This document shows positions 691 to 13,237 of a DNA stretch of 34,947 bases, in pieces. The stretch is from UHGV virus genome UHGV-0162383; one strand, given 5' to 3'. Made by a program: the position numbers and the translations under genes. Every line of letters begins with the position of its first letter. The stretch's first letter is position 1. This DNA comes from a virus. The notes below the pieces were generated by a model that saw nothing but the letters and a program-made list of their open reading frames with translations, was not told the DNA's origin and did not search any database.

Positions 691-1743
691 TTACGGGGTA
701 ATGCCAACCGCTGCCGCCACTTTGTCGCCACTTGGCAGCGTTGCCAGAGGATTGAAACGGAGCGCCGTTTCCAGATGATCCGGTGCCAGATGTGCGTAAC
801 GCATAGTCATTTTTATATCGTGGTGTCCGAGAATTTTTTGTAAGGCCAGAATGTTTCCACCCGACATCATGAAGTGCGCCGCAAACGTATGGCGCAGAAC
901 GTGTGTGAGTTGACCGCGAGGGAGCACGATAGACGTTTTTTCCATCACGGATAAAAATTGAAAATAGCAGTCTGTGAAGAAATTGAACCCATCAAGCGCC
1001 ATGATCTCTTCGTAAAGCTCTTTACTGATAGGGATGCTTCTGTTTTTCTTCCCCTTCGTTCTTACAAAGGTAATTCGGTATTTGGTCACCTGTGAACGAG
1101 TAAGATTTACGGCTTCTCGCCAGCGTGCGCCTGTGCTTAAGCATATCTTAACTACCAGTGCCAGAATTGGGTCCTGACGTTTGCAATCAGCCAGTAATTC
1201 AACAATCTGCTCATGGGTAAGCCATGCCATCTCTTTTTCTGCGATGGTGAATTTTCGCATGTTCTCCAGTGGGTTCGGATACGACCATTCGCCCAGGCGG
1301 GATAGTTCGCTAAAAACACTACTTAGATAGCTTTGCTCCAGGTTAATGGTGACCGGGCTTGCTCCTTTCTTCCATTTCTCGCTGAAGTAGATCTCACCTG
1401 TCAGGCGTTTATCTCGATAGTGGGCAAACATTTTAGAGGTTAGATCAGTTGCAAGGGGATTGCCCAGAGCGTCAACCATCAGCAGCAATTTGTCATAGAC
1501 ATGCTGCCCAGCTGTCAGTGATTTACCATGTAGTTTGAACCATAGCTCAACCACGTCTTTCAGTGTTCGACGATCCACTGATTCACCTAGCCAGGGCTTT
1601 GCTTCGGTTTCTTCCATCGTGTGACGCTCAAAAGCCAGTGCTTCGCCTTTGGTGGCGAATTGTTTACGCACACGACGTCCACTACGTCCGGCGGGGTAAC
1701 ATTCGCAAAGCCATTTTCCTGTGGTGAGTTTTCGTACTGCCAT
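691..1743 (-). CDS. int: Phage integrase, tyrosine recombinase (P2/186 Int family)
   Basis: 350 aa; C-terminal catalytic signature HVLRHTFAAHFMMSGGNILALQKILGHHDIKMTMRYAH (R..H..R..Y); N-terminus MAVRKLTTGKW...RKQFATKGEALAFE typical of P2/186 integrases; sits at the prophage end. Confidence 0.9.
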   Translation of the reverse strand: MAVRKLTTGKWLCECYPAGRSGRRVRKQFATKGEALAFERHTMEETEAKPWLGESVDRRTLKDVVELWFKLHGKSLTAGQHVYDKLLLMVDALGNPLATDLTSKMFAHYRDKRLTGEIYFSEKWKKGASPVTINLEQSYLSSVFSELSRLGEWSYPNPLENMRKFTIAEKEMAWLTHEQIVELLADCKRQDPILALVVKICLSTGARWREAVNLTRSQVTKYRITFVRTKGKKNRSIPISKELYEEIMALDGFNFFTDCYFQFLSVMEKTSIVLPRGQLTHVLRHTFAAHFMMSGGNILALQKILGHHDIKMTMRYAHLAPDHLETALRFNPLATLPSGDKVAAAVGITP

Positions 1744-1826
1744 AAAAAAGCCCTCATATCAGAGGGCTAAATTTAACTGTATATACAACCAGTAATCAAT
1801 GTGTGATTGCTATGAAACATACATTG

Positions 1827-3503
1827 CTAAGCAACATGTAGTTCATCGTTGGCGGAAGTGGCTGCTTTGCGTTCCTGCTCAATAGCTAGTGACTCTCTAT
1901 ATTCTTTCGCCTCTGCAAACATTGTCCAGTGGGCATTGATGTTCATATCTTCAATAACCGATTTAATTTCTTTAATATTTACGTTAAAAAACTCTTTTCG
2001 TGAGTTAATTTTATTGACCTGCTTTTCGTTGAAGACTTTATGCAGATGATTTTCTAATGACGGTGCATCATCACTATAAATCATCGCATGAACATCGAAC
2101 GAAAAAGGAACACTAGCATCCCCAAGTTCACGAACACGATCAAGTGGTTCAAGGCGGCGTGTCATTCCAATTTTATATACATCTTCGCCAAATGAGCCAA
2201 TATTGCTAATTATATAAACATGGCCTGATCTAGTTTGTTGAGCCATAGAAATAGCTCGTTGGTTTTTAGCTTCAGCTTCTTCATATTTTAACTGTAGTTC
2301 AGCTATTTTTTGCTCTAAAGCTAAGCGTTGTTCTTCATTTGCAAGCATAAGCTCTTTCGTTGCTTTATTTATAGCTTGCTGAATAGCTTTTTCTTCTTTT
2401 TCGGCTTCTTTTATCGCTTTTTCATACTCTCTACGAGCTCTTTCCTCTTCACGAAGCTGTTCTTTAATCCTTCTTTGCTCCTCTTTTTCTTCGAGCATAA
2501 TTTCATTAACTGCAACTCCCCATTTTAGCTCGTTGAGTCGTGCCTGAAGATAGATGTCACTTATTTTTGCGGATCTAAAAGCAGAGCCATTATAATTTAC
2601 AAGTTGAAATGCATCTTTTATTTCTTGGGAAAGTTTTCCAAAATTGTTGTGTTTGACTTTTGATAAAATACTGTCAACTCTTCCATTGAAGGCATCCAAA
2701 ACAAAGTTGATAGCAGTATTACGCCTGTTTTGCTCAACATAATCACACGAAGCTGCTTTATTAGTTTTTATTAATGATTTTGTTAACTCCCTGGCTTTTT
2801 GTAATTCCTTGCCTGCATCTGTAAACTCATAATTTTCTGCCAATTCATCAAGTACACTACGGTTAGGGATGATCCATTCATCGCCATAACCTTCAATTTT
2901 ATTTTTCATTGATTTGGCAACTGCTTCATATTTTTCTGCAAACTCTTTAGCTTCATATGCTGAACCAGCAATCTCTTTTGCTCTTTCTTCTGCATCGGAA
3001 ATAATTTTTACTGCGTTGTCATTAGCATTTGAGATCAGCTCATTTGCTTTACTGTTGGCATTATCAAGACGTTCTTTGGCTTTCAGGCGTGCATCGCGAG
3101 CGTCTTTGGTGATTGCTATAGCTTCGCTATTAGCGTTGCTTATTGTTATCTGAGCTTGATAACTTGCTTCGTTTACTGTCTTAGCTGCCTTTATTTGGGC
3201 TTCTTCTATTTTTTGCCTAGCTATTGAGTCTGCATTTTTTATCTTATTCTCTGCCTCCATCACTGCGCTGTGCAATTCTTCGTATTGCCATAATGGTGCT
3301 GCTCGCCCTTCAAGCTCTGATAGATCTCGTGCAGTCTGTGCTAACTTTTCTTGATTTTCACTCAGTTGGCTGGAAAGGGCTATGTTGTTAGCCGTCAGGT
3401 TATCTATGGCGGCTTTGTGTTCTTTACTTTGCTTAAATAATATTATAGCTAGAACAGGGGCGAGAAATGCTAATAAGAATATAACGATGGAAAATGAATT
3501 CAT
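1827..3503 (-). CDS. Membrane-anchored coiled-coil protein with DUF4041-like middle region and C-terminal T5orf172 (GIY-YIG-like) domain; cargo (moron) gene
   Basis: 558 aa; N-terminal hydrophobic helix (IVIFLLAFLAPVLAIILF), long A/E/K-rich heptad-like stretches, C-terminal GHVYIISN...VYKIGMT.R...R..E motif resembling GIY-YIG/T5orf172; strongly AT-rich compared with flanking int and cI. Confidence 0.6.
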   Translation of the reverse strand: MNSFSIVIFLLAFLAPVLAIILFKQSKEHKAAIDNLTANNIALSSQLSENQEKLAQTARDLSELEGRAAPLWQYEELHSAVMEAENKIKNADSIARQKIEEAQIKAAKTVNEASYQAQITISNANSEAIAITKDARDARLKAKERLDNANSKANELISNANDNAVKIISDAEERAKEIAGSAYEAKEFAEKYEAVAKSMKNKIEGYGDEWIIPNRSVLDELAENYEFTDAGKELQKARELTKSLIKTNKAASCDYVEQNRRNTAINFVLDAFNGRVDSILSKVKHNNFGKLSQEIKDAFQLVNYNGSAFRSAKISDIYLQARLNELKWGVAVNEIMLEEKEEQRRIKEQLREEERARREYEKAIKEAEKEEKAIQQAINKATKELMLANEEQRLALEQKIAELQLKYEEAEAKNQRAISMAQQTRSGHVYIISNIGSFGEDVYKIGMTRRLEPLDRVRELGDASVPFSFDVHAMIYSDDAPSLENHLHKVFNEKQVNKINSRKEFFNVNIKEIKSVIEDMNINAHWTMFAEAKEYRESLAIEQERKAATSANDELHVA

Positions 3504-3523: not shown

Positions 3524-4120
3524 TCAATTTGAAACTATTGTACTTCTTATACAAGCAACCACTTCAATATCAGAAAATGCACATTCAAAGCTATTCTCTG
3601 TAGTTGTAATTTTAATCATACCTTTTGGAAGCTTTGTGATTTTTCGAATGGAATAGGTTCCGTCGATGTTGATTAACCAGTGTCCATCAAGTACTTCAGA
3701 AAATTTTTGATCACAAATGTATGTGACAAGCCCATCCTGAATAACAATTGGTGATGAAAGATTTGCAGGAAGAAATGATGAATCGAATACATATGAACCA
3801 TCTTCAATCATTTTGCCTGCGGTAAGGCGAAACTTGGGAAGCTCTTCTGTGGCTACTGTCAGCGAGCTTTGCTTAAGTCCTTGCCCGGTGGTTAACCATT
3901 TCAGTGAGGTTCCTGTTTCAAGAGCACATTGGATTATCCAGTCTGCAGGAAACGTATCCCGCAAATACCTGTTCGCCAGAGTGCTTTTTGATACTTCCAA
4001 GTGATCAGCTAAAGCCTGTCGTGTCGTAAAGCCATAAGCTTCGACTAATCGCTCAATCGCAGCCTTACCACCTTTATTGGGATTTATTTTGATCTCACTT
4101 GGGTACTTTGATGTTGACAT
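3524..4120 (-). CDS. cI: Phage immunity repressor, 186 CI-like (HTH N-terminal domain)
   Basis: 198 aa; N-terminal HTH-like segment (YGFTTRQALADHLEVSKSTLANRYLRD); position immediately after int and divergent from apl/cII-like genes, as in 186. Confidence 0.75.
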   Translation of the reverse strand: MSTSKYPSEIKINPNKGGKAAIERLVEAYGFTTRQALADHLEVSKSTLANRYLRDTFPADWIIQCALETGTSLKWLTTGQGLKQSSLTVATEELPKFRLTAGKMIEDGSYVFDSSFLPANLSSPIVIQDGLVTYICDQKFSEVLDGHWLINIDGTYSIRKITKLPKGMIKITTTENSFECAFSDIEVVACIRSTIVSN

Positions 4121-6020: not shown

Positions 6021-6874
6021 GCACCATCCTGAAATGGGCGGGAAATAAAACCGCCATTATGTCCGAACTGAAAAAACACCTTCCTGCAGGCCCGCGACTG
6101 GTTGAACCTTTCGCGGGTTCCTGTGCTGTGATGATGGAGACGGATTATCCCTGCTATCTGGTTGCGGATATTAATCCTGATTTAATCAACCTCTATAAAA
6201 AGGTTGCCGCTGATTGTGAGGTGTTTATATCTCGTGCCAGAGCTTTATTTGAGGACGCAAACAGGGAGGTGACTTATTACAACATAAGACAGGAGTTTAA
6301 TTACTCAACTGAAATTACTGATTTCATGAAAGCGGTATATTTCCTGTATCTCAATCGTCACGGTTACCGTGGGTTATGTCGTTATAACAAGAGCGGGCAT
6401 TTCAACATTCCATACGGTAATTATAAAAATCCGTATTTCCCTGAAAAAGAAATTCGCGCATTTGCAGAGAAAGCCCAGCGAGCAACGTTTATCTGCGCCA
6501 GCTTTGATGAAACGCTGGCGATGCTGCAGGTGGGGGATGTGGTGTATTGCGATCCGCCTTATGACGGTACGTTTTCCGGCTATCACACTGACGGCTTCAC
6601 TGAAGATGACCAGTATCACCTGGCATCCGTTCTTGAACATCGGTCATCAGAAGGATATCCGGTCATTGTTTCTAACAGTGACACATCCCTGATCCGTTCG
6701 TTGTATCGCAATTTCACCCACCACTACATCAAAGCAAAACGCAGCATCGGTGTGGCAGCTGGTGAGAGTAAATCTGCAACAGAAATCATCGCTGTTTCCG
6801 GGCCGCGCTGCTGGGTAGGATTTGATCCTTCGCGTGGCGTGGATTGTTCCGTCGTGTACGGAGTGCGTGCATGA
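6017..6874 (+). CDS. dam: DNA adenine methyltransferase (Dam-like, N6-adenine MTase)
   Basis: N-terminal ILKWAGNK...PFAGSCAV (AdoMet-binding) and DPPY catalytic motif ([15 protein letters not shown]); ATG 6017 with GGAGG RBS, ATGA overlap with the upstream stop. Confidence 0.85.
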
Positions 6875-9285
6875 GCCATGCTGATATGAACAACTGCAGC
6901 GGCTTTAATGAGGTCGCCGCAGCATTCTCATGGAACAGCCCGAAAAAGGCCATTAACCCTTATCTGGACCCGGCGGAAGTTGCGCCGGTTTCTGCGCTTT
7001 CAAACCTGATCACTCTGTACGCTGCCGATAACGAGCAGGAACAACTGCGCCGCGAGGCACTGAGTGATCAGGTCTGGGAGCGTTATTTCTTTAATGAATC
7101 CCGTGATCCTGTCCAGCGCGAAATGGAGCAGGATAAGCTCATTAGCCGGGCAAAGCTGGCGCATGAGCAGCAGCGTTTTAATCCGGATATGGTCATTCTG
7201 GCGGACGTCAACGCCCAGCCTTCCCATATCAGCAAGCCGCTGATGCAACGTATTGAATACTTTAGCAGCCTGGGCAGGCCAAAGGCTTATTCCCGCTATT
7301 TACGTGAGACGATTAAGCCATGTCTGGAACGACTGGAGCATGTACGCGACAGCCAGCTATCTGCATCTTTTCGCTTTATGGCAAGCCATGAAGGGCTGGA
7401 CGGCCTGCTGATCCTGCCTGAAATGAGTCAGGATCAGGTGAAGCGCCTGTCTACCCTTGTCGCCGCGCATATGAGCATGTGCCTTGATGCAGCTTGTGGT
7501 GATTTGTATGCCACCGATGACGTTAAGCCAGAAGAAATCCGCAAGACATGGGAAAAGGTGGCAGCGGAAACCCTGCGTCTGGATGTCATCCCGCCTGCGT
7601 TTGAGCAACTCCGCCGGAAAAGAAACCGCCGTAAACCCGTGCCCTATGAACTCATTCCGGGTTCGCTGGCGCGTATGTTGTGCGCCGACTGGTGGTACCG
7701 GAAATTATGGAAGATGCGTTGCGAATGGCGGGAAGAGCAGTTGCGTGCTGTCTGCCTGGTCAGCAAAAAAGCATCTCCCTATGTCAGCTATGAAGCCGTG
7801 ATGCATAAACGTGAGCAGCGCCGTAAGTCGCTGGAGTTTTTTCGTTCTCATGAACTGGTGAACGAAGACGGCGACACGCTGGACATGGAGGATGTGGTAA
7901 ACGCCAGCAGCAGCAACCCTGCGCATCGCCGCAATGAGATGATGGCCTGTGTTAAAGGCCTGGAGCTTATCGCGGAAATGCGTGGTGACTGCGCCGTTTT
8001 CTACACCATTACCTGTCCGTCACGTTTCCATTCCACGCTCAATAACGGCAGACCAAACCCAACCTGGACAAATGCGACGGTAAGACAAAGCAGCGATTAT
8101 CTGGTCGGCATGTTTGCTGCATTTCGTAAGGCGATGCACAAAGCCGGGTTGCGCTGGTATGGCGTGCGGGTGGCTGAGCCGCATCATGACGGTACGGTTC
8201 ACTGGCACCTGTTGTGTTTCATGCGCAAAAAAGACCGCCGTGCCATTACTGCATTGTTGCGTAAGTTTGCCATCCGTGAAGACCGCGAGGAACTGGGTAA
8301 TAACACTGGTCCACGCTTTAAATCTGAGCTGATAAACCCGCGCAAAGGAACACCGACAAGCTACATCGCGAAATACATTAGTAAGAACATTGACGGGCGT
8401 GGTCTGGCTGGCGAGATCAGCAAGGAAACGGGTAAATCCCTGCGTGATAACGCTGAATACGTTAATGCCTGGGCGTCTCTGCATCGTGTTCAGCAATTCC
8501 GCTTCTTTGGTATTCCGGGGCGTCAGGCTTACCGTGAACTGCGATTGCTGGCTGGTCAGGCGGCAAGGCAACAGGGCGACAAAAAAGCAGGTGCGCCGGT
8601 ACTGGATAACCCGCGCCTTGATGCCATCCTGGCTGCTGCTGATGCTGGTTGTTTTGCCACTTACATCATGAAGCAGGGTGGTGTACTGGTTCCCCGCAAA
8701 TATCACCTCATCAGAACTGCTTATGAAATTAACGAAGAGCCGACCGCCTATGGCGATCACGGCATTCGTATTTATGGCATCTGGTCACCCATTGCAGAGG
8801 GCAAGATCTGCACTCATGCAGTGAAGTGGAAAATGGTTCGTAAAGCCGTTGACGTTCAGGAGGCGGTAGCCGACCAGGGCGCTTGCGCCCCTTGGACTCG
8901 TGGCAATAACTGTCCCCTTGCTGAAAATTTGTACCAACAAGGGAAAGACAAATCAGCTGATGGAGATACCAGAACGGATATCACCCGCATGGATGACAAG
9001 GAGTTGCACGATTACCTGCACAGTATGAGCAAAAAAGAGCGCCGGGAACTGGCTGCAAGGTTACGCCTGGTGAAACCGAAACGGCGTAAAGACTACAAAC
9101 AGCGAATTACAGACCATCAGCGACAGCAGCTCGTCTATGAACTGGAGTCCAGAGGATTTAATGGCAGCGAGAAAGAGGTCGATTTACTCCTTCGCGGCGG
9201 CAGTATTCCGTCAGGAGCAGGTCTGCGTATCTTCTATCGGAACCAGCGTTTGCAGGAAGATGATAAGTGGCGAAACCTGTATTAA
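6871..9285 (+). CDS. A: Replication initiation protein A (rolling-circle HUH endonuclease, P2 gpA family)
   Basis: About 804 aa; HUH motif ([13 protein letters not shown]) and downstream Tyr-containing segment ([10 protein letters not shown]); ATG 6871 overlaps the dam stop (ATGA); the six-frame ORF begins upstream at TTG 6844. Confidence 0.9.
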
Positions 9286-9379
9286 TTACGCGGGTTAACA
9301 ATTCGTGCTCTTAATAATACCAGGCATATCAGGCTGATGAACGTAAAAAAACGTTTTACATCAGTAAGATTATTATATA

Positions 9380-9395
9380 CTGTAAATATAAACAG
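9380..9395. promoter_or_regulatory. LexA (SOS) box CTGT-N8-ACAG: taCTGTaaatataaACAGtg
   Basis: Canonical CTGT-N8-ACAG with AT-rich spacer, about 45 bp upstream of the Tum-like/DinI-like gene pair. Confidence 0.65.
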
Positions 9396-9438
9396 TGGTT
9401 ATGTATACAGTATTGCTTGTGGTGTCATAGGAGGAAAG

Positions 9439-9627
9439 ATGCAGGACTATTTTTTGGAGTCTTTGAAGCTCCAGCGCATTGATTTTTTTCTTAAGCTTGT
9501 AGCGGCTAGTGAGTGTAGTGATGAAGAGAAGGGGCTGGCTTTGCAGTGGGTTTCTGAACTGACAGATGAACTCATGGCAAAAATCAGAAGCCACGAATAC
9601 AACCGCTCAATGGATGTCATCAGCTGA
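9439..9627 (+). CDS. Small protein downstream of the LexA box; candidate Tum-like SOS-inducible antirepressor
   Basis: 62 aa from ATG 9439 with AGGAGG RBS; position and LexA control match the 186 tum locus; no sequence-level confirmation. Confidence 0.4.
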   Translation: MQDYFLESLKLQRIDFFLKLVAASECSDEEKGLALQWVSELTDELMAKIRSHEYNRSMDVIS

Positions 9628-9637
9628 GGGGACTTTT

Positions 9638-9871
9638 ATGCGCATTGAAATAATGATCGATAAAGAGCAGAAGATTAGCCAGTCTACCCTGGACGCCCTT
9701 GAATCCGAGCTTTACCGCAATCTGCGCCCCCTGTATCCCAAAACGGTAATTCGTATCCGTAAAGGTAGCTCTAACGGTGTGGAACTGACCGGACTGCAAC
9801 TGGACGAAGAAAGGAAGCAAGTGATGAAAATTATGCAGAAGGTGTGGGAAGACGACAGCTGGCTGCATTAA
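9638..9871 (+). CDS. DinI-family protein
   Basis: 77 aa, MRIEIMIDKEQKISQSTLDALESELYRNL...VWEDDSWLH, resembling E. coli DinI in length and in N- and C-terminal motifs; immediately follows the Tum-like ORF under the same LexA box. Confidence 0.7.
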   Translation: MRIEIMIDKEQKISQSTLDALESELYRNLRPLYPKTVIRIRKGSSNGVELTGLQLDEERKQVMKIMQKVWEDDSWLH

Positions 9872-10141
9872 GAAACGTTGCTGGCGTCTGAACTTGCTTC
9901 TGGCGTCAGCAAGGTTGAACAACGAGCTGTGCGAGGCGTTAGTGTCAATTTGTTACCTTAACCACGATATATGCTAGGAAATTAACAGTTCTTAAGAAAC
10001 CGCTTGCATGATCGAGCGCATTGAACTTAAGTTTAAGTAACGAAATCAACAGATGATATTGTTGTCTAAATTTTAAAGATAATCTGTTGAGGTTGTAGGC
10101 GTCGGAGTGTAGACTTCCGCGCCATGTAAAAAGGGGGAGTT

Positions 10142-10357
10142 ATGTCAAGCATCGCCGCATTTAGCCTGGGTAACCCAGTTGAACGTCTGGCAAGGGTTCT
10201 TAAAGAGAACCAGGACAAACTCAATCTTAGTAAAGATGGTTTTGTGTCCGTAGACTTGTCTAACAAAAGAGCAATGGATGCCATCAAGGCACAGATGGAT
10301 AAGCTTGAAGGCATCAAAACGAGCACTGTAAAAGAGAAAACTAATAGAACCAGATAA
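10142..10357 (+). CDS. Small soluble charged protein; first gene of a two-gene cargo operon
   Basis: 71 aa; strong RBS AGGGGGAG before ATG 10142; stop overlaps the downstream start (TAATG); AT-rich. Confidence 0.45.
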   Translation: MSSIAAFSLGNPVERLARVLKENQDKLNLSKDGFVSVDLSNKRAMDAIKAQMDKLEGIKTSTVKEKTNRTR

Positions 10358-11199
10358 TGGCAACATTACTTTTAGCAGTGATTTTGGTTAGTGGTTTTAT
10401 TTATGTAAACCTATCACTTTCAACAAGATACCGATATAAGCGTTCCAACGGCTGGGACGCTTATTTTTTTGTGGCTGCCTGGGGTATTGTTTTTTTTCTC
10501 CTTGGCGGTTTTTTCACCTTTATTTTGAACGTCAGCGGAGGGTTTCGTTGGCTGGCTAATGCCTTGAATCTAACACCTGACAGTTTTAATGGCATGTTGT
10601 CTTCATCGAAAGACAAACTTCAAAGAATAAATGAAATCAAACAGATAGCATGGGTTATGATTTCAATTGTCCTCGCTGCGATTTCAGGTTTTGGAAATAA
10701 GTTACGCACATCACGTGGAGATCGTCGCTGGGATGCCTTAGCTAAAGCTGTGGGTAATAACGCTTTCGAATCATTACTCATGGAAGCGTCCGCAAGACAG
10801 TTTCCGATCATAGCAACTCTGTCGTCTCGCAAAATCTATGTTGGTCTTGTTACTTGTCCGGCGTTAGAAAACGGGCTTTCAGAGCACCTTGAACTTCTCC
10901 CGATGTTAAGCGGATATCGGGATAAAGATGATCTAACGATTAGTATCACGACTAACTATCACCAACATTATCTTGATAGTGGTGTGATAAGTGGAATGTC
11001 TCGGCTTAATATCGAAGATTTCCGTGTGCTCATACCAAAAGATGAGGTTGAAACAATTTCGTTTTTTGATACTGAGACATATAACAAATTTAAAGAAAAT
11101 GAAGCCAGGGATAGAAAGAGCTGTCGAAAGATTGGTAGTAAAAGTGCATCTTCGCGCAGCAAGCGTGCAGCAGATGCTGAGTCAAATGATCGTGCATGA
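10357..11199 (+). CDS. Integral membrane protein (about 3 TM helices) with cytoplasmic C-terminal domain; second gene of the cargo operon
   Basis: 280 aa; hydrophobic segments near residues 3-17, 35-57 and 97-112, then a soluble domain of roughly 130 aa and a basic Ser/Arg/Lys-rich tail; translationally coupled to the upstream ORF; followed by an intrinsic terminator. Confidence 0.5.
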   Translation: MATLLLAVILVSGFIYVNLSLSTRYRYKRSNGWDAYFFVAAWGIVFFLLGGFFTFILNVSGGFRWLANALNLTPDSFNGMLSSSKDKLQRINEIKQIAWVMISIVLAAISGFGNKLRTSRGDRRWDALAKAVGNNAFESLLMEASARQFPIIATLSSRKIYVGLVTCPALENGLSEHLELLPMLSGYRDKDDLTISITTNYHQHYLDSGVISGMSRLNIEDFRVLIPKDEVETISFFDTETYNKFKENEARDRKSCRKIGSKSASSRSKRAADAESNDRA

Positions 11200-11455: not shown

Positions 11456-13237
11456 ATGAATTTTGATGCAACACCACTAAATATAAAAAACATTCTATCT
11501 GTAAAACAAAGATATGTTATTCCACGTAATCAACGTGAGTTTAGTTGGGAAAAGCTTCAGCTTGAAGAATTATGGCAAGATATTGTCAGAAACATAAGGT
11601 TGAATGAAGATGGACAGAACTTGGAGTGTTCAGAATATTTTATAGGGACTATTGTTCTTTCTGGAGCAGATAGTGATGATGTATTAGAAGTGGTTGATGG
11701 ACAACAACGATTTTCAGTTATTACTATATTGCTTTCATTAATATCGCGTAAATTGCGTTCCTTAGGGCAAGATTCATTAGCGGATGATATATTTAAAACA
11801 TATATCGTTACTGTGAGTCCTACATTTAGCAGAAGCCAATTAGCTTCAAATGGTGAGACATTTATTGAAAAATTAGCAAAAAATAGCGATAGAACATATT
11901 TTAAGTTAAAATATCAAGATCGCGAAGAGCATCAAGTTGATGAATCTTGTGAAGAAGATGTACGTATAAGTTATGCAGGAATTTTTCTTTCTAGAAAACT
12001 AGGGAGGAAATCACTCTGTTCTGCATTGTTGCGAGATGGTGCAAAACATTATAATAACCAAGATTATATATTTTGTTTGACTGCTGTATATAGAATGATT
12101 ACCAATTATTTGAAGTTGGTAAAAATATCTGTAGGTAAGGAGGATGATGCTTATGATATTTTTGAAGTGTTGAATGCTCGAGGGATAAACTTAAGTTCAA
12201 TTGATTTGATAAAGAATAAAGTATTCCAAACTTGCACTCAAACATATCCGGTAGATATTGCAAAAACAAAATGGGATTATATCGTTACTCAAATTGAGTC
12301 TAGGGATAGTAATAGCACTATTGCTGATTATATTAGAACGTGGTGGCTTTCTAAGTATAATTATATTGGAGAAGATCAACTTTATCGTGCTTTTAAACGT
12401 GAGATTCAAGATGAGAATACTTTATTGTCATCAGCATCATTTCTGAACGAATTATATGATGATGTTGAATTATACTGTAAAATAATAGCGCCAAATACAG
12501 ATGACTGGCCTCAACCTGATCAGCGTGAAATTTACAACTCGTTAAAAGCATTCGAGATTTTTAATGTGAGTATTCCTCGACCATTTGTACTCTCATTACT
12601 TAGAAAACGTAAAGAGAAACCGAGAGCCCTTACACAATCAATGCTGATAGAATGTTTGAAGTCCTTAGAGTCATTTCACTTTAAGTTTAATGCAGTATGT
12701 CGTCTAAGACCATCTGGAATCGATGCAAAATATTCTGTATTAGCAGTAAGAATGAATAAGGCATTAAATAAAAGAGATGTTGAGGGTGTTATTAATGACG
12801 CATTAGATTATTTTACACAGAAAGGGCCTTCAGAAAATATATTCAAACAAGCATTTTCAAAGAATATTGTTTATACAAATAAAAAGTCTGGGCAAAGGAA
12901 GTTGATTGTTTATATTTTTGACAAATTGGAACGTATCAGACGAGGGACGCGAGAGTTAAAAATGGATATAGTTTCTTTGGAACACATATCATCTCAAAGC
13001 AAAACTAACGAGTCAGTCGTGGGTATGATTGGTAATTTACTACCACTCTGTTTTTCACTTAATGAAGATTGCAAAAATTATGAGTTGCACAAAAAAATAG
13101 AATCTTATAAAAAATCTGATTTAAAATTAGTTACAGAGTTTGTTAGTGAGTCAGAAGCAAGAGAACATAAATGGGATGATTCATTAATAAAAGAAAGAAC
13201 AGATAGCTTGGCGTTAGAAACGTTTGCTAAAATATAA
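11456..13237 (+). CDS. DUF262/DUF1524 two-domain protein, GmrSD-like (type IV restriction-like) nuclease; cargo gene
   Basis: 593 aa; N-terminal DUF262/ParB-like motifs (IPRNQREFSWE and VVDGQQRFSV), C-terminal His-Me-finger-like motifs (SLEHISSQS ... GNLLPLCFSLNEDCKN); strongly AT-rich; RBS GAGGA before ATG 11456. Confidence 0.6.
   Translation: MNFDATPLNIKNILSVKQRYVIPRNQREFSWEKLQLEELWQDIVRNIRLNEDGQNLECSEYFIGTIVLSGADSDDVLEVVDGQQRFSVITILLSLISRKLRSLGQDSLADDIFKTYIVTVSPTFSRSQLASNGETFIEKLAKNSDRTYFKLKYQDREEHQVDESCEEDVRISYAGIFLSRKLGRKSLCSALLRDGAKHYNNQDYIFCLTAVYRMITNYLKLVKISVGKEDDAYDIFEVLNARGINLSSIDLIKNKVFQTCTQTYPVDIAKTKWDYIVTQIESRDSNSTIADYIRTWWLSKYNYIGEDQLYRAFKREIQDENTLLSSASFLNELYDDVELYCKIIAPNTDDWPQPDQREIYNSLKAFEIFNVSIPRPFVLSLLRKRKEKPRALTQSMLIECLKSLESFHFKFNAVCRLRPSGIDAKYSVLAVRMNKALNKRDVEGVINDALDYFTQKGPSENIFKQAFSKNIVYTNKKSGQRKLIVYIFDKLERIRRGTRELKMDIVSLEHISSQSKTNESVVGMIGNLLPLCFSLNEDCKNYELHKKIESYKKSDLKLVTEFVSESEAREHKWDDSLIKERTDSLALETFAKI

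Follow-up and report, generated by a model that had tools for sequence, protein, structure and literature searches.

How would a prophage whose repressor lacks a self-cleavage domain respond to DNA damage? This question is raised by positions 9286-9871 of the virus genome UHGV-0162383, which we analysed over its full length of 34,947 nucleotides (hereafter the window). The window is a P2/186-like (Peduoviridae) prophage adjoining rcdA (ybjK), and a 97% identical phage record, vB_EcoM-813R9, carries equivalent annotation. An initial annotation, made by a model from the sequence alone, had pointed in this 586-nt segment to a LexA box followed by two small open reading frames (ORFs). It had proposed that these represent a split version of the tum gene of coliphage 186, with prophage induction through an antirepressor rather than through self-cleavage of the repressor. 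We find it very probable that the segment is an SOS operon of a temperate phage of the 186/Fels-2 type, in split tumA-tumB form and working by the five-step mechanism proposed below. The module as such is already known: it is the tumA-tumB SOS operon of Fels-2/PSP3-type phages and, judged by its sequence, the window carries the Fels-2 allele.

Homology of the two reading frames to 186 Tum

The second frame of the module, ORF2 or tumB (9638-9871, plus strand), encodes a DinI-family protein of 77 aa, as had been claimed. It matches the Pfam DinI family PF06183 with 81.3 bits against a cut-off of 24.2 (E 6.6e-23), residues 14-76 covering all 63 positions of the profile (1-63), and its residues 1-75 align with E. 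coli DinI from end to end (PDB 1ghh, E 2.7e-6), including the C-terminal helix (ILQETWE / IMQKVWED). The score for the NCBIfam equivalog of chromosomal DinI, PRK10597, is 42.7 bits and falls below the cut-off of 111, which makes ORF2 a TumB-type paralogue of phage origin rather than the host's own dinI. Identity is 100% to Fels-2 STM2726.1, 78% to PSP3 TumB and 41-42% to the C-terminal half of 186 Tum (Tum95.5). Over residues 71-145 of 186 Tum, 31 of 75 positions are identical (E 3e-24). The ORF2 start coincides with the internal GTG start from which 186 makes Tum95.5, a separate DinI-like product that the 186 record describes with the words 'modulates SOS induction'.

The upstream frame, ORF1 or tumA (9439-9627 on the plus strand, including the stop codon TGA at 9625-9627), encodes 62 aa. 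It shares 97% identity with Fels-2 STM2728 and falls into the functionally uncharacterised family phrog_698 (E 5.9e-38), while no Pfam or NCBIfam family is matched. Its relation to 186 Tum emerges with more sensitive comparisons. Aligned without gaps by Smith-Waterman, residues 6-41 of ORF1 and Tum score 57, against 21.4 ± 4.0 for shuffled sequences, none of which reached this value in 5000 trials (z ~9). The N-terminal domain of 186 Tum itself matches phrog_698 (E 5.9e-6), and both proteins match phrog_8554 and phrog_1993, the latter being the family of PSP3 TumA (E 1.1e-8 and 0.002, respectively, for ORF1). Finally, when an alignment of six sequences of the ORF1 group was compared by hhalign with one of five sequences from the 186/PSP3/ENT90/Yersinia group, columns 1-42 of the two matched with a probability of 96.7% and an E of 4.4e-10. 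As judged from these sequence profiles, ORF1 is homologous to the antirepressor domain of Tum and to PSP3 TumA. The proposed split of 186 tum is supported on both sides, ORF2 corresponding to Tum residues 71-145 and ORF1, by profile methods, to the N-terminal domain.

ORF1 is also a real protein-coding gene under purifying selection, because its variable sites are distributed 2/1/15 over codon positions 1/2/3 in a sample of 80 related IMG/VR loci, chosen as the best TumA matches. An AlphaFold2 model from the single sequence predicts a two-helix hairpin (helices 2-23 and 28-61; mean predicted local distance difference test, pLDDT, 91.5) with its turn at the conserved Cys26. The PDB holds no solved structure of a Tum N-terminal domain, nor of a complex.

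Both genes have good ribosome-binding sites, in agreement with the initial annotation. The Shine-Dalgarno sequence of tumA is AGGAGG (9429-9434, plus strand), invariant in related loci, and that of tumB is GAGGGG (9626-9631, plus strand), which overlaps the tumA stop codon. The two ORFs are separated by 10 nt, an arrangement that suggests translational coupling. In most phage records examined, as well as in the listed E. coli genome matches, the 62-aa gene is labelled 'hypothetical protein'. Two RefSeq phage records (L091, 8896-9189; L090, 4381-4671) give tumA as 97 aa, starting ~100 nt further upstream. This is probably a mis-called start codon, because the LexA boxes and the promoter would then fall inside the coding sequence.

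LexA box 1 and the presumed SOS promoter

The gap between gene A and tumA is 153 nt long and holds the LexA box that had been noted at 9380-9395. This box, CTGTAAATATAAACAG (strand unassigned; box 1 hereafter), lies 44-59 nt upstream of the tumA start and is the sole exact CTGT-N8-ACAG in the window, confirming the earlier claim. Taken alone, a single match of this kind is weak evidence for LexA control: 0.38 are expected by chance in the window, and 33 of 100 shuffled sequences contain at least one. Box 1 gains weight because of its context, i.e. its position, its overlap with a -10 hexamer, its conservation and its rank in a weight-matrix scan. We scored the 34,928 20-mers of the window with a LexA position weight matrix (PWM) built from 18 chromosomal sites, whose scores are indicative only; the lowest training site reaches 13.0 bits. 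The 20-mer of box 1, TACTGTAAATATAAACAGTG (9378-9397), scores 23.7 bits and ranks second. Its approximate heterology index, likewise only indicative, is 4.3, and the box is nearly invariant across the 80 loci.

Around box 1 we can read a presumed SOS promoter, equivalent of 186 p95: a -35-like hexamer TTTACA (9355-9360, plus strand), a 17-nt spacer and a -10-like hexamer TACTGT (9378-9383, plus strand) that lies inside the box. The layout is near-identical to that of p95, annotated as TTCACA, 18 nt and TACTGT, where a LexA site likewise covers the -10. A sigma-70 consensus and terminator scan of positions 9200-10400 called nothing. It is silent at the SOS promoter because TACTGT matches TATAAT at just three of six positions, so that we assign the promoter by analogy with p95 as annotated in 186.

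Between the stop codon of gene A and box 1 lies an A/U-rich imperfect hairpin (9333-9365, plus strand), whose 3' arm holds the -35 hexamer. Its predicted RNA fold has an energy of -12.6 kcal/mol (z = -3.8), equalled by none of 200 shuffled sequences; the terminator scan did not call it. Positions 9346-9367 are near-invariant in the 80 loci, with one low-frequency variable site. The hairpin might possibly act as an insulator or weak terminator against read-through from the early operon.

Conservation and gene order

The LexA box, both Shine-Dalgarno sequences, both ORFs and their spacing are kept in all of the 80 fetched loci, and the 586-nt segment is found in 1125 of 5426 complete E. coli genomes, around one fifth. 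Gene order is likewise constant. Replication gene A (gpA; 6844-9285, plus strand, stop codon at 9283-9285) precedes the module, and rightward from cI come apl/cox, cII, a fil-like, a B-like and an orf80-like gene, a DksA-type zinc-finger gene, dam and gene A. The order int-(cargo)-cI-apl-cII-fil-...-dam-A-tumA-tumB agrees with that of Fels-2-like phages. More widely, a tumA-like gene directly follows gpA in 186, PSP3, Fels-2, SEN8, MLG42, ESSI-2, ENT90 and the YenM phages, and in every relative examined a CTGT-N8-ACAG box is found 25-45 nt upstream of the start codon of the TumA-like gene. The box is present whether DinI is fused to Tum (186), encoded separately (PSP3, Fels-2, SEN8, MLG42, ST437phi4.1) or absent (ESSI-2, ev015, ENT90, YenM_324, YenM_201.16).

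A repressor without a self-cleavage domain

The presumed target of TumA is the 186-type immunity repressor encoded by cI (3524-4120, minus strand). CI is 33% identical to 186 CI (E 1e-34) and matches PDB 2fjr (E 6e-27). In Pfam it comprises Phage_CI_repr (residues 20-83) and Phage_CI_C (94-190) and has no S24 peptidase domain. RecA-stimulated self-cleavage is therefore unavailable to it and an antirepressor route is expected, in support of the route that had been proposed for this prophage.

Relation to known systems

Lemire et al. 2011 (PMC3121763) describe tum of Fels-2 and PSP3 as split in two by a stop codon. Fels-2 of Salmonella Typhimurium LT2 (NC_010463) is the closest system: STM2728 and STM2726.1 likewise follow gpA, its promoter and double LexA operator (see below) are identical to those of the window save two centre bases of the second box, and its record refers its own DinI gene to PSP3 TumB. 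It differs in the C-terminal domain of CI (25% identity, against 71% in the N-terminal domain), in the type of int and in its downstream cargo. In PSP3 (NC_005340), tumA is annotated 'similar to 5' end 186 tum; UV induction of prophage' and tumB 'similar to dinI and 3' end of 186 tum'. The split genes, the upstream LexA box, the place after the A gene and the 78% identical TumB are shared with the window, but PSP3 TumA is ~22% identical and falls in phrog_1993 instead of phrog_698, there is a single LexA box, and PSP3 CI, with 286 aa and a duplicated N-terminal domain, is unlike that of the window.

Phage 186 itself has, in p95-tum(-orf97), a TACTGT -10 covered by a LexA site, a DinI-like domain that comes after an antirepressor domain, and a CI of the same family. 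In contrast to the window, the two domains are fused by a linker of ~25 aa into a Tum of 146 aa, the LexA box is single and the N-terminal domain is ~21% identical. No homologue of orf97 was looked for downstream of tumB, where the next ORFs match PHROG families of unknown function and a GmrSD-like protein. According to the 186 record, p95 is SOS-dependent, Tum 'inhibits CI DNA binding' and Tum95.5 is a separate DinI-like product; Tum sequesters CI after LexA derepression (PMC7708051). A further parallel is offered by the dinI-gfoA/gftA operons of Gifsy-1/-2/-3, in which a LexA box precedes two genes, one for a DinI homologue and one for a small antirepressor directed against a non-cleavable repressor (PMC3121763). 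There, however, dinI comes first, the antirepressor and repressor families differ by the paper's description, and the prophages are lambdoid. A full-text search for CAGTGGTTAT returned unrelated papers only, and PMC12455584 and PMC8072944 held nothing on Fels-2 tum.

A candidate double operator

A second LexA box, GTGGTTATGTATACAG (9395-9410, strand unassigned; box 2), lies directly downstream of box 1. The two are offset by 15 bp and have G9395 in common. The right arm of box 2 is perfect and the left arm degenerate. Its 20-mer, CAGTGGTTATGTATACAGTA (9393-9412), scores 15.7 bits and ranks third of the 34,928, the next best site in the window reaching 9.4 bits. Across the 80 loci box 2 keeps its arms, and nowhere between the genes is variation greater than at its centre (9403-9405), as would be expected of a LexA site.

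This arrangement resembles the operators of colicin genes. In a plasmid-collection search, positions 9372-9414 of the window matched small mobilisable plasmids with 86-88% identity over 42-48 nt, the matches lying ~40 nt upstream of colicin N, cloacin and pore-forming colicin genes. Colicin promoters have a pair of overlapping SOS boxes to which two LexA dimers bind (PMC2994835; PMC4482635), and these double boxes lead to very tight, late SOS expression (PMC4482635; PMC2994835). In the colicin operons (colicin N, cloacin, E1/K/E8 type) the boxes likewise share one base pair, with TATACTGTAAATATAAACAGTGGTTATGTATACAGTAT here corresponding to TA(A/T)ACTGTATATAAAACCAGTGGTTATGTGTACAGTAT there. Yet in the colicin operons a strong TTGACA-17-TAATTT promoter immediately precedes the boxes, whereas box 1 overlaps a presumed weak -10, and the controlled genes are unrelated. 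The likeness could stem either from shared descent or from convergence on the constraints of LexA binding.

We lean towards a double, colicin-type operator with two predicted LexA dimers, although a single operator of the p95 kind, binding one dimer, deserves to be weighed as the less probable option. Box 2 would then be a non-functional relic, or be kept for another reason, for example as part of the 5' untranslated region. Against a second functional site speak its left arm, GTGG instead of the consensus CTGT, a score well under the 23.7 bits of box 1 and an approximate heterology index of 7-11, compared to 4.3. In addition, a single box is enough in 186, PSP3, ESSI-2, ENT90 and the Yersinia enterocolitica phages, and ev015 likewise has only one; since a MAFFT alignment sets the single 186/PSP3 box over box 2, one of the two boxes could be the remnant of a duplication. 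A relic fits less well with the third best site in 35 kb, scoring above the weakest training site, or with conserved arms around the most variable centre of the region. The one-base overlap and the GTGGTTAT...TACAG pattern are also features of the colicin operators, in which both boxes are footprinted by LexA. Moreover, double boxes persist in SEN8, MLG42 and ST437phi4.1 (TumA 84-90% identical) despite the divergence of the surrounding sequence. On this balance we retain the double operator as the favoured reading.

One TumA allele and mosaic repressors

If TumA inhibits CI, which part of the repressor does it meet? We compared both proteins in those 70 IMG/VR loci whose sequence covers cI. 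Among them TumA is 98-100% identical, and CI as a whole 39-100%. The divergence sits in the linker and the C-terminal oligomerisation domain (26-100%, median 38%), the N-terminal domain being 70-100% identical (median 79%). Confinement of the divergence to this part indicates a recombination joint inside cI. The genes cII and A are 89-100% identical, and the type of int switches together with the C-terminal part of CI. In these sequences TumA appears to travel with the N-terminal domain of CI and the switch region, not with the C-terminal domain, and it most likely contacts CI's N-terminal domain, which binds DNA, or at least ignores the C-terminal one.

In a set of eight phages that are more distant, identity of TumA is correlated with that of the CI N-terminal domain (Pearson 0.96). 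We do not take this correlation as a sign of co-evolution, since gpA identity correlates equally (0.97), which points to lineage. In the covariation of TumA and CI, only the absence of a relation to the C-terminal domain is informative.

As a separate observation, CI is 286-318 aa long in nine of the loci (L023, L028, L051, L055, L062, L068, L074, L075, L087), as well as in the PSP3 record (L095). These long forms arise from a tandem duplication of the N-terminal helix-turn-helix domain before the C-terminal domain, and they coexist with the same TumA allele as single-domain repressors.

A LexA-like site upstream of int

The top PWM score of the window (24.7 bits) belongs not to the tumAB operator but to a LexA-like site, AACTGTATATACAACCAGTA (1775-1794, strand unassigned), 32-51 nt upstream of the start of int (691-1743, minus strand), in the left part of the window. 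Read on the int strand, AACTGTATATACAACCAGTA fills the 17-nt spacer of a promoter-like TTGATT and TTAAAT pair; in most relatives this place is taken by TTGACA and AAAAAT, likewise 17 nt apart. In ~40 related loci the arms of the int-site box are kept and its centre varies, three of the variants being perfect CTGT-N8-ACAG sequences. The int-upstream element is found in 1096 of 5426 E. coli genomes. By contrast, int of the Fels-2 type starts 3 nt after cI and has no such LexA-like element. Together, these features suggest an SOS-controlled int promoter, of which a shallow literature search found no description.

A terminator-like hairpin (1768-1749, AGCCCTC-TGATATG-AGGGCT followed by a T-run) abuts the int ATG and contains the int Shine-Dalgarno sequence. 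An int transcript from this promoter may begin at or inside the hairpin that would otherwise hide the ribosome-binding site of int. Just upstream of the -35-like hexamer there is also an inverted repeat, ATGTATG-N(13-17)-CATACAT (1795-1830, minus strand), which is kept in relatives with differing flanks.

Proposed mechanism and alternative explanations

The mechanism that we propose starts in the lysogen, where host LexA, bound to the operator over the -10 between gene A and tumA, would silence the operon; we infer this step because of the sequence, its conservation and the 186 precedent. With a double operator, two LexA dimers would make repression very tight, and the operon would fire only at deep LexA depletion. 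DNA damage would activate RecA, LexA would cleave itself and tumA-tumB would be transcribed, as established for 186 p95. TumA would then bind CI stoichiometrically and reversibly and block its binding to the operators, so that pR fires and lytic development and excision follow. Antirepressor activity has been established for 186 Tum, and PSP3 TumA is reported to have it; we attribute it to this TumA by homology. Because CI has no self-cleavage domain, TumA is the only evident SOS route for this prophage. TumB, which would share its mRNA with tumA and whose translation is probably coupled to it, would be expected from its DinI family membership to bind RecA filaments and modulate SOS, tuning the length or strength of the signal. 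By analogy with related systems, it would be dispensable. The split between the two proteins coincides exactly with the boundary between domains at which 186 uses an internal start to make its own separate DinI-like product.

Several points weigh against this account. BLASTP gave no alignment of ORF1 with either 186 Tum or PSP3 TumA, which is a limit of pairwise sensitivity and not missing homology, as Smith-Waterman, PHROG and hhalign comparisons find it; still, identity to the N-terminal domain of 186 Tum is only ~21%. The promoter hexamers are weak. The uniformity of TumA across the 80 loci is in part a product of selecting the best TumA matches, and the link between TumA and the N-terminal domain of CI is confounded by lineage, given that gpA and CII identities track TumA as well. 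The antirepressor activity of a split TumA goes back to a personal communication, second-hand in PMC3121763. As to TumB, Gifsy prophages from which the dinI homologue was deleted showed no measurable change in induction (PMC3121763); its importance is doubtful because of these deletions and because TumA-like relatives without a DinI gene exist (ESSI-2, ev015, ENT90, YenM_324). Finally, LexA binding, SOS induction and TumA-CI binding are, for this allele, what we infer from its relatives and its sequence.

Could the 62-aa protein be SOS-induced and yet not act on this CI? It might have a conserved host or phage target, such as cell division, RecA or another regulator, leaving the prophage non-inducible or induced otherwise. 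We regard this as improbable. A near-invariant TumA allele alongside CI proteins that are only 39-100% identical is indeed unexpected for a specific protein-protein inhibitor, and the ~21% identity to the characterised 186 domain and the 'hypothetical protein' label of most records leave room for another function. Profile-level homology to the Tum antirepressor domain is significant nonetheless. The position, strand and LexA control of the gene are constant throughout the 186-like group, also where the TumA-like gene lacks a DinI partner, and CI's N-terminal domain, which binds DNA, is at least 70% identical wherever this TumA allele occurs. CI has no other visible SOS input. In addition, the title of Bunny et al. 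2002, the original source on the split in Fels-2 and PSP3 (as cited in PMC3121763 and PMC8072944), states that Fels-2 makes a lexA null lethal in Salmonella, and Fels-2 tumA is 97% identical to that of the window. The remaining explanation, a fortuitous LexA-like palindrome beside short ORFs without function, has a negligible probability. One CTGT-N8-ACAG in 35 kb is not rare (0.38 expected) and ORF1 has no Pfam or NCBIfam family, but the box, ORFs and spacing are kept in 80 of 80 loci with synonymous-biased substitutions, the module recurs in 1125 of 5426 E. coli genomes and ORF2 is a clear DinI member: the conservation data already refute a chance origin.

A further question is whether the SOS wiring of this prophage, taken as a split tumA-tumB operon acting on CI, is richer than that of 186. 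It would be so in three ways jointly: the double operator would delay tumAB; the LexA box would gate int and excision, only SOS-initiated transcripts translating Int; and one TumA allele would serve CI proteins with unrelated C-terminal domains by targeting their DNA-binding domain. We consider the three together a tentative and rather doubtful proposal. If true, the TumA allele could cross-induce co-resident prophages. We found no earlier description of the double operator, of the LexA box at int or of a TumA shared among mosaic CI. They are modest leads that, if confirmed, would refine how DNA damage is linked to the threshold of induction and to excision.

The practical value of the analysis lies in annotation, a gene labelled 'hypothetical protein' being the likely trigger of prophage induction. 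Recognition of tumA predicts SOS inducibility of these P2/186-like prophages, e.g. by fluoroquinolones, and inducibility bears on the spread of the defence cargo that they carry, here PD-Lambda-1 and a GmrSD-like enzyme.

Downstream edge and cargo genes

Just after tumB there is a hairpin with an 11-bp stem and no U tract (9878-9912, plus strand), at the position of the 186 partial terminator t95a. It is not significant over the whole 95 nt (z = -1.4) and the scan called no terminator there. Homology past tumB ends at 9869 with some relatives and at ~9942 with others. From these staggered ends, the 3' side of tumB is the edge of a variable cargo hotspot.

This hotspot, between tumB and the portal gene, holds on the same strand as tumAB the gene of the GmrSD-like protein (11456-13237, plus strand; Pfam GmrSD_N and GmrSD_C; PADLOC HEC-06/Orf5, E 7e-75), which is present in only two of the 80 related loci. 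The second defence gene lies between int and cI (1827-3503, minus strand). Its 558-aa product matches PADLOC PD-Lambda-1 (E 7e-120) and Pfam DUF4041 and T5orf172/MUG113, and it occurs in only 8 of 81 related loci (L002 and seven from IMG/VR), always together with a CI of the window type.

Two overlapping ORFs of 71 and 280 aa (10142-11199, plus strand) start 270 nt after tumB and match phrog_9843 and phrog_3630, of unknown function; neither has a PADLOC or Pfam match. The 280-aa protein has an N-terminal hydrophobic region. The two may form an uncharacterised cargo or defence pair, copies of which, 85-87% identical, are found in four related loci.

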